The notes: generated by a model from the letters alone, not told the origin. A DNA stretch of 64,000 nucleotides from Octopus vulgaris (GCA_951406725.2 OX597817.1:12586001-12650000), one strand, 5' to 3'; numbered from the stretch's first letter, positions 38,264 to 42,955 are shown. A program made the numbers and translations.

Positions 38264-39456
38264 TATATATATATATATATATATATATATATATATATAT
38301 ATATATATATATATATATATATATATATATATATATATATATATATATATATATATATATATATATATATATATATATATATATATATATATATATATAT
38401 ATATATATATATATATATATATATATATATATATATATATATATATATATATATATATATATATATATATATATATATATATATATATATATATATATAT
38501 ATATATATATATATATATATATATATATATATATATATATATATATATATATATATATATATATATATATATATATATATATATATATATATATATATAT
38601 ACATATATATGCATATATATACATATATATGCATATATATATATATATATATACATATATATACATATATATGCATATATATACATATATATGCATATAT
38701 ATACATATATATATATATATATATATATACATATATACATATATATATATATATATATATATATATATATATATATATATATATATATATATATATATAT
38801 ATATATATATATATATATATATATATATATATATATATATATATATATATATATATATATATATATATATATATATATATATATATATATATATATATAT
38901 ATATATATATATATATATATATATATATATATATATATATATATATATATATATATATATATATATATATATATATATATATATATATATATATATATAT
39001 ATATATATATATATATATATATATATATATATATATATATATATATATATATATATATATATATATATATATATATATATATATATATATATATATATAT
39101 ATATATATATATATATATATATATATATATATATATATATATATATATATATATATATATATATATATATATATATATATATATATATATATATATATAT
39201 ATATATATATATATATATATATATATATATAATATATATATATATATATATATATATATATATATATATATATATATATATATATATATATATATATAAT
39301 ATATATATATATATATATATATATATAATATATATATACATAATATATATATATATATATATATATATATATATATATATATATATATATATATATATAT
39401 ATATATATATACATATATATACATATATACATATATATATATACATATATATATAT
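38264..39456. repeat. ~1.2-kb (TA)n tract
   Basis: Direct reading; exact length may be an assembly estimate. Confidence 0.95.
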
Positions 39457-42400
39457 AATCAAATAAACAAATCACCAAAACAATTAAAACCATCCACTCT
39501 CGCCTCAACATTTCTGCTTAATGCCCAAGGCATCAGCCCTTCCACCAATACACAAAAATGGAAGATAAGATTCCTGGAGGACTGGGTCGAGGCCCATCCA
39601 AACCACATCCCTTTCTTCGTCCTCACTGAAACCCATCTTAGTGACCTCCACTTGGAAGCCGAGGTGAAAGTTAAAAATTTCAAAACCATTCGTGCTGATC
39701 GTGTTGGCAGAAGAAAGGGTGGGACTGCCATTTATGTCCATGATTCATTCTCAACAGAAGCCATGAACATATTTTCGAATGGATACTTCGAAGCAGTCGC
39801 TGTATTCAGTCAAACCAACAACTTAACAGTAGTTGGGCTCTACAGACCACCCCAAACGCCCCTACCATGCTTCAAGGAATGCCTCAACAGCATAAAGTGT
39901 TTCATTCAGCAGTGTCAACCTGACAACATTTTAATGATGGGAGATTTCAACCTTCCCGGGGTTGACTGGTCTACAAACAGTCTGTCGCCAGGTTCTTCTC
40001 TCTCAACCCCTGACAGGGAGGCAGTGGAATCGCTTCTTGACTTCATGGATGACTTCTTCTTGTCCCAACTGGTACTCGAACCAACGAGATGTCACAAAAA
40101 CGTCTTAGACTTAATTTTCAGCAATCACACTGATACTATCCACAATATTGCAGTGGAGAAAACCCTACTCTCCGACCATGACATGGTTCTCTGTGATCTG
40201 AGATTTCACTGGCCAAAATGCAAAACAAATGTCATCCCTCCTGTTCATCCATTTGACACTATGGATTTCCACAATGCAAACTGGGAAGCGATCAATAATG
40301 ATCTTGCACAAGTCGATTGGTCCTTCACGCACACATACACACCCACTAACATCAAAAAGTCCTGGCAGTCACTTGTAGACACCATCACGAACATATGTGC
40401 AAGACACACCCCATTAAGATCTGCAAACAAATCTAAGTGTCGAATCCCTAGAAATAGAAAATCTCTCATAAGGAAAATTAAAAGAATCAACAAAAAGATC
40501 AACATGCTGAAATACTGTCAACAGCAACACACCAACCTGACTGCCATCTCGTCGCTAGAGATTAAAAAACATAAACTCCAAAACAACATGATGTCTATCA
40601 TCAATAGTCAGCGAAGAGCTGAAGAGGCCTGGGCCATTGAGAAGATCAAACTCAATCCCAAAGTGTTCTTTTCATTTGCAAAAAAACACAGAGTCACTGG
40701 TTCTACTGTTGGCCCTCTGATTGATGAAAATGGTATTCTTCAAGACAATGCCAAAACCATGGGAGAAATATTGCAGAAACAATATTGCTCTGTTTTCAGC
40801 AATCCTGATATGACTGATCTGGGCTGTATCAGTGATGTTACTCCCCAATACACTTTATCGGACATAACATTTGGCGCTCCTGATGTCTTAGCAGCAATAA
40901 AGGAAATGAAGCATAATTCAGCAGTAGGTCCCGATAGGTTCCCTGCTTGTGTCTTGAAGATGTGTCAAAACCAACTTGCACCCCCTCTAGCCAATCTGTG
41001 GCGGAACTCATTGGATGCTGGATATATACCAGAAGACCTTCTATCCCAGTTTGTTGTCCCAGTTTTCAAAAAAGGAAACAAATCGCTTGCCGTGAATTAC
41101 CGTCCAATCTCACTCACCTCTCATATCATCAAGGTATTTGAGAGGGTGCTGAGATCGCGTATGACTCACTTCCTTGAGAGTCATAATATGCTGAACCCCA
41201 ACCAGCATGGATTCCGTAATGGGAGAGATTGCCTGACGCAGCTACTGCATCATTTTGATGACATTTTGAGAGCCTTGGGAGAGGGTTCCAACACTGATGT
41301 CATCTACCTTGATTTCAGCAAGGCCTTTGACAGGGTTGATCATAAGATCCTTCTGAGAAAGCTGTCCAATATTGGTGTCACTGGAAAGCTGCTGCAATGG
41401 ATCAAGTGCTTCCTCTCTAACAGAACCCAACATGTTGTAGTCGAAGGAGTCAAATCCAGCCCAGCCAAAGTCAGCAGTGGTGTCCCACAAGGCACTGTGT
41501 TGGGCCCACTTCTCTTCATCATCTACATAAATGATATTACTGACACCATCAAACACAGCAACATCAGAACCTTCGCTGATGATTCCAAGCTCCAGAAGGT
41601 CATCAATGGCGTGGATGACCGAATAAACCTTCAGTCAGACCTACTAGCTGTTGTCCAATGGGCGGAAAAGAATAACATGTTGCTAAATGAAGACAAATTC
41701 GAACTGATCCACTTTGGAAGGGAGGACGCTCTGAAACTCCCATACTCTCTTCCTTCTGGAGAAATTCTCATGGCATCCAACAACATCAGAGACCTGGGAG
41801 TAACAGTGGACAACAACATAAGCTGGGCTACACATATAAGCAGCAAAGTTGACATGGCCCGCAGAATGTGTTCCTGGATTCTCAGAACCTTCCAGTCGAG
41901 AGATTCCCACGCTATTATCCTTCTCTTCTCCACTTTTGCCCGACCCCACCTTGAATACTGCTGTCCACTGTGGTCTCCCTACACAAAACAAAATATTATG
42001 AGAATTGAAGCTCCCCAAAGGTCAATCACAAAAAAGATAGATGGCATGTCAGACCTTGACTACTGGGGTAGACTAGAGAAGCTGAAATTGTATTCACTCC
42101 AACGACGCCGTGAACGCTACATTATCTGTATGATGTGGAAAATATTCCATCAGCACTGTCCGAATGATGTTGGCATCACCTTCAAAATGCATCCAAGGCT
42201 TGGACCACGTGCCATCCGTCCACAACAAAAATCTAAATCGCATCACATAACGACAATACGGCACAACTATTTCACCTCAATTGGACCCGCTCTCTTCAAC
42301 ATTACACCAGGACACGTCAAAAAAGAAACTGACCACACAAAATTCAAGAAGTCTTTGGACAAATTCCTTCAAACAGTACCGGACAAACCATCCACACCCG

Positions 42401-42459
42401 GATATGTCTCCGCAAACAATAACTCTCTGCTCGAATGGGCCTTGGTGCCCAAATCCTGA
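39457..42459 (+). CDS. LINE ORF2 (apurinic-like endonuclease + reverse transcriptase), CR1 group; uninterrupted ~1000 codons, 5'-truncated element ending ~42546
   Basis: EN motifs LNAQG, LTETHL, GGTAIY, LYRPP, MGDFN, LDLIF, SDHD; RT motifs [40 protein letters not shown]-terminal PDKP..GY...NNSL; 3' tail (TTCTAAGTTA)2. Confidence 0.95.
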
Positions 42460-42545
42460 ACTGAAAGACTTCGCCAGGTGGTGCTATTAAGTTAGACATG
42501 GCCTGGGCCAATACTGGCCAAAAACCTTTCTAAGTTATTCTAAGT

Positions 42546-42955
42546 TATATATATATACATATATATATATAATATATATATATATATATATATATATATA
42601 TATATATATATATATATATATATATATATATATATATATATATATATATATATATATATATATATATATATATATATATATATATATATATATATATATA
42701 TATATATATATATATATACATATATATATATACATATATATATATATATATATATATATACATATATATATATACATATATATATATACATATATATATA
42801 TATATATATATATATATACATATATATATATATATATATATATATATATATATATATATATATATATATATATATATATATATATATATATATATATATA
42901 TATATATATATATATATATATATATATATATATATATATATATATATACATATAT
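42546..42955. repeat. ~410-bp (TA)n tract
   Basis: Direct reading. Confidence 0.95.

Follow-up and report, generated by a model that had tools for sequence, protein, structure and literature searches.

A young LINE lineage with CR1-group anatomy strongly prefers (TA)n arrays in the Octopus vulgaris genome

Here we report a strong preference for (TA)n microsatellite arrays in a young lineage of LINEs (long interspersed nuclear elements) with CR1-group anatomy from Octopus vulgaris. The lineage is represented in a 64,000-nt stretch of this genome (OX597817.1:12586001-12650000, hereafter the window) by a 5'-truncated copy of family A1, which we compared across the searched genome (2.80 Gb, 227 contigs) with its sister families A2 and A3, the more distant family B and the control family C. 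Most A1 copies lie in this one repeat type, with the repeat on both flanks and far above background, so that by its distribution the family is target-specific. We consider it probable that the ribonucleoprotein of the element selects long (TA)n arrays and starts target-primed reverse transcription at its own nick, with 2-3 nt of tail pairing.

Results

Distribution of copies in TA arrays

Copies were counted genome-wide with exact tail patterns on the forward strand, one row per copy, and were scored as TA-bound when (AT)4 (ATATATAT) occurred within 25 bp behind the tail. The exact 24-nt tail pattern of A1 has 325 matches in the genome, and TA follows the tail in 131 of 150 forward-strand copies. 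The background of this score, taken from 60 evenly placed 10-kb samples (600 kb), amounts to 5.7% for random positions and rises to 17% for TA sites and 32% for TAT sites; perfect TA tracts of at least 10 bp make up 2.7% of a 200-kb sample. Family B, counted with a tail pattern that is a one-base variant, the window's own B copy falling outside the count, has TA behind the tail in 165 of 322 copies (p=5e-15 for the difference from A1).

The read sample comprised 80 loci and the window, from which four duplicates and two loci without an exact tail (both TA-flanked) were removed, leaving 75 copies; here at least half TA/AT steps were required in the 40 bp behind the tail (background 5.9%). By this score the 3' flank was TA-rich in 72 of the 75 A1 copies. 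On the 5' side, 59 of 74 ends passed the same score, and 66 of the 74, with truncations at 70 different points, had an array no more than 30 bp away. The corresponding 3' values were 15/30 for B, 10/19 for A3 and 1/25 for C, and A2 was found in TA in 16 of 20 evenly picked copies and in all 15 copies picked by their first open reading frame (ORF1). The preference is thus graded, from 87-96% in A1 and 80-100% in A2 through about 50% in A3 and B to about background in C. A first-pass annotation of the window had proposed that the family of its large element is young and strongly (TA)n-bound, which these counts bear out; the prediction that most genomic tails would have (TA)n flanks came true for A1, but for only about half of the B copies.

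Age and selection

The amplification of A1 is recent: its last 216 bp are 100% identical in 40 of 40 scored matches (1,382 candidates), and 67 of the 75 copies are at least 99% identical to the reference copy L044 (median 99.8%). Between A1 and A2, the ratio of nonsynonymous to synonymous substitution rates (dN/dS) is 0.107 for the endonuclease (EN) and 0.075 for the reverse transcriptase (RT), and values this low, a sign of purifying selection, indicate that the endonuclease is in use.

The full-length A1 element

The full A1 element of 4.78 kb, reconstructed from longer genomic copies, begins with a 5' untranslated region (UTR) of about 450 bp; ORF1 (about 409 aa) follows and overlaps with ORF2 (about 1005 aa, counted from the first ATG), and the 3' UTR measures 90 bp. 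One to three units of a 10-bp repeat form the 3' end in all 75 copies, with two units in 69 of them. ORF2 is open from the endonuclease to its end in 10 of 20 long copies, and both ORFs are kept in four of eight near-full-length copies. The ORF1 protein has a weak Myb/SANT-like N-terminus, a poly-Q stretch and two CCCH fingers. The element is covered by contigs from three runs whose identity as RNA is a guess, and this coverage is no demonstration of transcription; at locus L091, one DNA run gave no contig joint across the element, the contigs being cut at repeats. At the 5' junctions of L001, L038, L048, L286, L290 and L294, the first bases of the element recur as short templated duplications interspersed with TA.

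The window copy and its host site

The window copy of A1 lies between two TA arrays inside a short interspersed nuclear element (SINE), with the following features (TRF, Tandem Repeats Finder; APE, apurinic/apyrimidinic endonuclease):

38250..39456, no strand: left (TA)n target array of about 1.2 kb with TACA/TGCA variants (sequence and TRF; TRF 38250-39457, period 2, 95% matches)
39457..42545, plus strand: 5'-truncated family A1 LINE copy, the last 3.09 kb of the 4.78-kb element
39457..42459, plus strand: ORF2 frame open up to the stop, its first in-frame ATG removed by the truncation
39562..40179, plus strand: APE-type endonuclease (Pfam PF03372 and PF14529, alignment to L1 ORF2p, structure model)
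41074..41805, plus strand: reverse transcriptase domain with FADD motif (Pfam PF00078, E 1.5e-30)
42460..42548, plus strand: 3' UTR, predicted to form a stem-loop and closed by two units of the 10-bp terminal repeat; its final TAT belongs to the target array as well
42546..42956, no strand: right (TA)n target array of 411 bp (TRF)
38040..43122, minus strand: host SINE split by the A1 insertion, its head (42957-43122) and its body and tail (38040-38249) on opposite sides of the LINE

The EN+RT frame runs uninterrupted through 1001 codons to a stop that ends at 42459, in agreement with the roughly 1000 codons annotated before. The description of the element as ORF-intact holds for this frame, but the copy is without ORF1 and the 5' UTR/promoter region, and the window's B copy has an in-frame stop. 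Judged from its sequence, the window copy is not autonomous; its truncation point lies 15 nt below ORF2's first in-frame ATG, so the copy is no possible source element. It is 99.7-99.9% identical to longer genomic copies that extend further upstream, and differs from copy L034 by three amino acids. The endonuclease catalytic positions N, E, Y, D/N, D and H are all present in the alignment to L1 ORF2p, and the endonuclease model (predicted local distance difference test score, pLDDT, 91) has L1 EN as its closest fold. The predicted 3' UTR stem-loop has a fold z of -2.3, with 6 of 200 shuffles equally good.

The internal TA tract of the host SINE was the target of this copy; both the array at 38250 and that at 46946 represent the microsatellite that an abundant SINE carries internally. 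Within 664 kb examined, the head-to-body spacers of this SINE measure 43-113 bp in 33 of 37 cases, and the position holds TA in unoccupied copies. SINE-internal arrays were rejected as the majority target of A1 (1 of 54); several A1 copies are found in TA directly behind the tail of the abundant SINE (L095, L278, L285). The host site belongs to a series of nested repeats (37810-43450), where a plus-strand SINE head (37810-37968) and a TA/TG tract are followed by the minus-strand SINE with the LINE, then by a full-length 5S rRNA-like copy (43135-43253, minus strand, Rfam 102 bits) just upstream of the minus-strand SINE head, and finally by the body of the first, plus-strand SINE. The 5S rRNA-like copy and the minus-strand SINE may form a single read-through retroposed unit.

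Sister, cousin and control families

A2 is the sister of A1, with 80% identity in ORF2; its tail has 2,287 matches, which partly represent older relatives and tandem arrays. Many intact full-length copies were seen among the A2 loci L377-L395, where the ORF2 frame has no ATG ahead of the endonuclease, ORF1 and ORF2 share one frame in two copies, and the 5' UTR contains a short (TA)n of its own. A fixed TATGTA end of A2 was considered and rejected as an artefact of a query with about 65 bp of TA flank. A2-type tails recur every 2-9 kb at C1:20015723-20039873 and C1:119860507-119871504, resembling tandem segmental repeats. At L098:1357-1585, A1 and A2-type copies stand tail to tail with only a few TA in between; in the A2-type copy the A2 tail comes after a stretch resembling the A1 tail, and this copy is perhaps a recombinant or transitional form. 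A3 is an older sister, its tail found in 19 of 29 loci. Copies of A1, A2, A3 and B share arrays.

Families B and C are present in the window as follows:

5338..6375, plus strand: family B LINE 3' fragment with an (ATCA)n tail, TA at 5285-5336 and 6375-6413
47009..47040, minus strand: 32-bp tip of the family B tail (91% match), placed within a second SINE copy in its internal TA tract
48135..48532, minus strand: control, family C LINE 3' end with a (TTA)n tail, outside arrays, about 6% diverged from other copies

All three insertions that had been reported with TA on both sides, namely the A1 copy, the B fragment and the B tip on the minus strand, were recovered with these flanks; three of three in one window is weak evidence alone, and the genome-wide counts carry the claim. 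The B fragment has one in-frame stop (6016-6018). The proposal that two related families form one (TA)n lineage is not supported in that form: identity between A and B in ORF2 is no more than 35-42%, and the two are not equally specific, B being TA-bound in only about half of its copies. The fragment at 48135-48532, taken as a control in that annotation, belongs to another LINE family and lies outside an array. The ORF1 protein of B has a similar short helical N-terminus with no Myb match. The 3' tail of the window's most abundant SINE is about 82% like that of family B over 45 bp (6305-6353 versus, for example, 38045-38091 and 45546-45594), and this resemblance makes them a likely SINE/LINE pair.

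Arrays as pre-existing targets

The arrays at the 5' ends, reached over so many truncation points, argue that TA is the target and not a product of the tail. In 21 of 59 cases the two flanks of the same A1 copy have array variants in common, whereas eight shuffles of the pairings gave 5-7 such cases. The DNA of the 3' flank therefore belongs to the target and was not brought along from the donor; some copies have (TATG)n on both sides. That the arrays predate the A1 insertions is strongly inferred. An element that makes its arrays itself, by a transcript that ends in or reads through (UA)n, or by growth of TA from the tail after insertion, would fit a tail unit that ends in TA, occupied arrays longer than background, and RTE tails, which are cited as a source of microsatellites (PMC9115989; this and the other papers are cited for their available portions). 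It is nevertheless very improbable in view of the 5' arrays, the variants shared between flanks, the two-sided (TATG)n, and the target in the window, a SINE position that holds TA when unoccupied.

Random insertion followed by selective purging of copies outside arrays is hardly credible. Arrays are probably harmless sites, but a rise from 5.7% to 87% would require the loss of about 99% of the other insertions in a very young family, and one half of the B copies and almost all C copies have survived outside arrays.

Junctions and array length

The 3' junction of A1 is in one phase, TAT continuing in 70 of 75 copies, and both the next tail unit and the target supply TAT. Tail pairing of 2-3 nt fixes the junction and does not give the specificity alone, because 32% would be expected at TAT and 87% is seen. 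The 3' arrays of A1 reach at least 100 bp in 52 of 75 copies and at least 300 bp in 21, compared with 19.5% and 3.5% of random TATATATA sites, and the total of both sides is at least 1 kb at 15 of 66 occupied sites versus 0 of 520 background arrays. The median array length is 157 bp for A1 and 63 bp, an ordinary value, for B. A short recognition word is insufficient, because perfect 8-bp TATATATA sites fall short of the observed array lengths. The bias reflects either the choice of long arrays, by their shape or their many binding sites, or growth after insertion.

According to the mechanism we favor, the A1/A2 ribonucleoprotein would pick a pre-existing long (TA)n array, its endonuclease would nick that array, and the last TA(T) of the tail would pair with the cut strand and prime reverse transcription. 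The endonuclease would be the main chooser, reading the shape of long alternating TA DNA rather than a short word, because an 8-bp site cannot give the observed lengths.

Several observations weigh against this mechanism. The targeting is not strict: at 8 of 74 5' ends an array is missing from the nearest 30 bp, and on the 3' side 3 of 75 copies lack a TA-rich flank. No target-site duplication is clearly readable within arrays in the A1 copies, and no feature relatable to target specificity was found in the endonuclease model. The long-array bias could come partly from expansion after insertion, and control family C, at about 6% divergence, is older than A1. Moreover, B is 51% TA-bound and Penelope-like elements prefer (TA)n (PMC8557442), so that enzymes of unrelated kinds are drawn to TA arrays, and fragility of the host DNA may play a part.

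Such fragility could even act alone, if long TA arrays break or open spontaneously through hairpins, cruciforms or replication stress and capture any active retroelement, with no preference encoded by the element. The strong excess of arrays of at least 1 kb, the arrays shared by A1, A2, A3 and B, the templated duplications at some 5' junctions, and the use of TA by the unrelated Penelope-like elements all speak for this explanation. We regard it as quite unlikely, given that families of the same genome differ widely (87%, 51% and 1/25), the arrays that hold B copies are normal in length, junctions at the 3' end are precise, and the endonuclease is conserved. Age alone does not explain family C, because the old family A3 still has 10/19 copies in TA.

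The chooser might instead be ORF1, if its N-terminal Myb/SANT-like domain binds TA arrays, many molecules per long array, and tethers an ordinary endonuclease; we think this unlikely. Many binding sites would explain the length bias. Pfam Myb_DNA-bind_4 matches the N-terminus of both A1 (E 1.6e-4, 22.4 bits) and A2 (E 2.3e-5, 25.1 bits), although both scores are below the curated cut-off of 27. The domain is 48% identical between A1 and A2 and is modeled as a three-helix bundle with Myb, trihelix and homeodomain proteins as its nearest folds, but the Foldseek E-values are 0.8 or worse, and the best VIA Z of 6.6 (root-mean-square deviation 2.2 over 63 residues) can reflect a common arrangement. 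The similar short helical N-terminus of B is in line with a role of ORF1, the missing Myb match there is not. In relatives from marine metagenomes the N-terminus is, by eye, Cys-rich and PHD-like instead, and TA arrays do not follow their tails, but the sample of flanks is biased. RNA is the usual binding partner of ORF1 proteins, which counts against this role. When 7,980 candidates of 224-716 aa were scored, no ORF1 homologue reached E 0.001, a result that does not prove novelty.

Relation to known elements

Like members of the CR1 group, which comprises CR1, L2, Crack, Daphne, Kiri and Rex1 (PMC13343379), A1 has an N-terminal APE and an RT in ORF2 with no RNase H match (Pfam PF03372, PF14529 and PF00078 only), frequent 5' truncation, and a short tandem-repeat 3' end with no poly(A). 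The A1 tail unit holds ATTCTAAG, which agrees at 7 of 8 positions with the chicken CR1 3' repeat ATTCTRTG (PMC2817409); the A2 unit differs. The A families are unlike the CR1 group in their strong preference for one microsatellite and in an ORF1 with a Myb/SANT-like match and two CCCH fingers. The C-terminal 'ERL..L.L.SL.RRR' stretch of ORF2 is presumably also CR1-like. The described ORF1 types (esterase, PHD, RRM, CCHC, transposase 22) were not found by Pfam, which gave only the weak Myb_DNA-bind_4 and CCCH matches, and in the available text of an ORF1 survey the words Myb, SANT and CCCH do not occur (PMC4120745). An unmatched ORF1 type does not exclude the CR1 group, because ORF1 is described as modular and exchanged (PMC4120745, PMC13343379). 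Placement in the CR1 group is partly supported, by the domain layout and the presumed motif rather than by a tree with named references. A quick RT tree of 61 rows, a subset of 120 homologues with genomic copies and unnamed homologues only, joined A1, A2 and A3 in one clade (support 100) and placed B apart.

Microsatellites are the targets of Waldo (R1 clade), Kibi and Koshi (Tx1 clade) and Dong (R4). The R1 clade has a C-terminal zinc motif in ORF2, and the Tx1/L1 group (Kibi, Koshi, Keno) has a C-terminal zf-RVT-type zinc motif and a poly(A) tail. The R1-clade element Mino resides in AC repeats (PMC3124438), type I ORF1 proteins of this clade have CCHC zinc knuckles (PMC4120745), and site-specific LINEs among APE clades are attributed only to Tx1 and R1 (PMC13295347), target-specific families being mostly early-branched or from these two clades (PMC4640811). 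The A families share with the R1 and Tx1 microsatellite elements an APE element inside a simple repeat with the repeat on both flanks, and differ in a tail made of a tandem repeat, in (TA)n as target and in a specificity that is not absolute. Neither CCHC knuckles in ORF1 nor a C-terminal zinc motif in ORF2 was found in A1 by Pfam and by eye; Pfam also gave no zf-RVT match, and the tail is not poly(A). L1 ORF2p matches only over residues 28-689 (E 3e-26). A1 and A2 work like the R1 and Tx1 microsatellite elements, yet lack the domains of those clades.

Other occupants of the microsatellite niche are more distant. It is shared with restriction-like endonuclease (RLE) elements such as R4/Dong, and with the HERO families and Togen, which insert in (TG)n (PMC4640811), but the APE of A1 is N-terminal and no C-terminal restriction-like endonuclease match was found. 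The Penelope-like Naiad and Hydra elements, of which Naiads occur in Octopus species, likewise prefer (TA)n and have target-site duplications that are hard to read (PMC8557442), but they have a GIY-YIG endonuclease and a telomerase-like RT and are not LINEs, making this a convergent use of the niche. In the RTE clade a microsatellite-like 3' tail also pairs with the first target bases, but this signature is weak and the sites are dispersed (PMC6007223, PMC13295347), whereas the A families are found in arrays at 80-96%.

The nearest outside relatives are unnamed marine-metagenome proteins, up to 48% identical in ORF2; the associated Atlas cluster (that of P0004) is commonest in Ctenophora, the phylum being known for 5 members. 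They share with the A families the ORF2 layout, CCCH fingers in ORF1 and tails ending in AAGTA-type repeats, and differ in a Cys-rich ORF1 N-terminus. In L299, L300, L302 and L304, a PHD-like Cys cluster is accompanied by several CCCH fingers, of which Pfam reports at most weak CCCH matches. No TA array was found behind the tail in 39 3' ends examined from 80 metagenome loci, and (TA)4 occurred anywhere in only 9 of the 80; these flanks are biased, because short-read contigs break at arrays, and the hosts may also have few arrays. This comparison of sequences hints that the TA preference was derived within the lineage.

For Octopus, an unknown I-superfamily clade with an RT sister to I-Loa-R1 and Tad1 has been described (PMC10294476), with which the A families might be identical. 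The available part of a study of O. vulgaris repeats lists 13 recently active CR1 families and does not contain the word 'target' (PMC13282606). No report of a (TA)n-targeting CR1-group LINE was found in the literature searched, which leaves most subscription papers outside and in which the string '(TA)n' is not searchable in that form; the negative likewise does not extend to Repbase, Dfam or the PMC10294476 supplements, where these families may be entered together with their target.

Other repeats in the window

Tandem copies of a 184-217-bp interspersed repeat occupy 11098-11470, 31843-32428 and 36191-36560, and a 33-bp minisatellite of 16 copies with 98% identity lies at 49313-49843. A minus-strand frame at 19210-19830 contains fragments that resemble, by eye only, a remnant of an LTR-type pol.

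Discussion

In reviews up to 2026, site-specific APE LINEs are confined to the R1 and Tx1 clades. The genome examined here combines two young families that have intact full-length copies with an older sister and a cousin of half specificity, a natural series from weak to strong targeting, which makes it testable whether a dispersed LINE gains its target through the endonuclease, ORF1 or the RNA tail. A broader scenario, which we hold to be doubtful, is that site-specific insertion among APE LINEs arose independently for a third time, within the CR1 group, and did so through the swap of a Myb/SANT ORF1 N-terminus that reads long (TA)n rather than through changes to the endonuclease. In that case the graded specificity of the sister families, from about 50% to more than 90%, would record the steps of this change, and successive insertions may extend arrays that are then hit by subsequent copies.

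The APE platforms for gene writing insert at random (PMC13708176), and for such tools an RNA-templated inserter of compact size, with a preference for non-coding TA arrays, is of interest. For the host, the preference for TA arrays helps to explain the nesting of repeats in TA-rich genomes of the cephalopod type.

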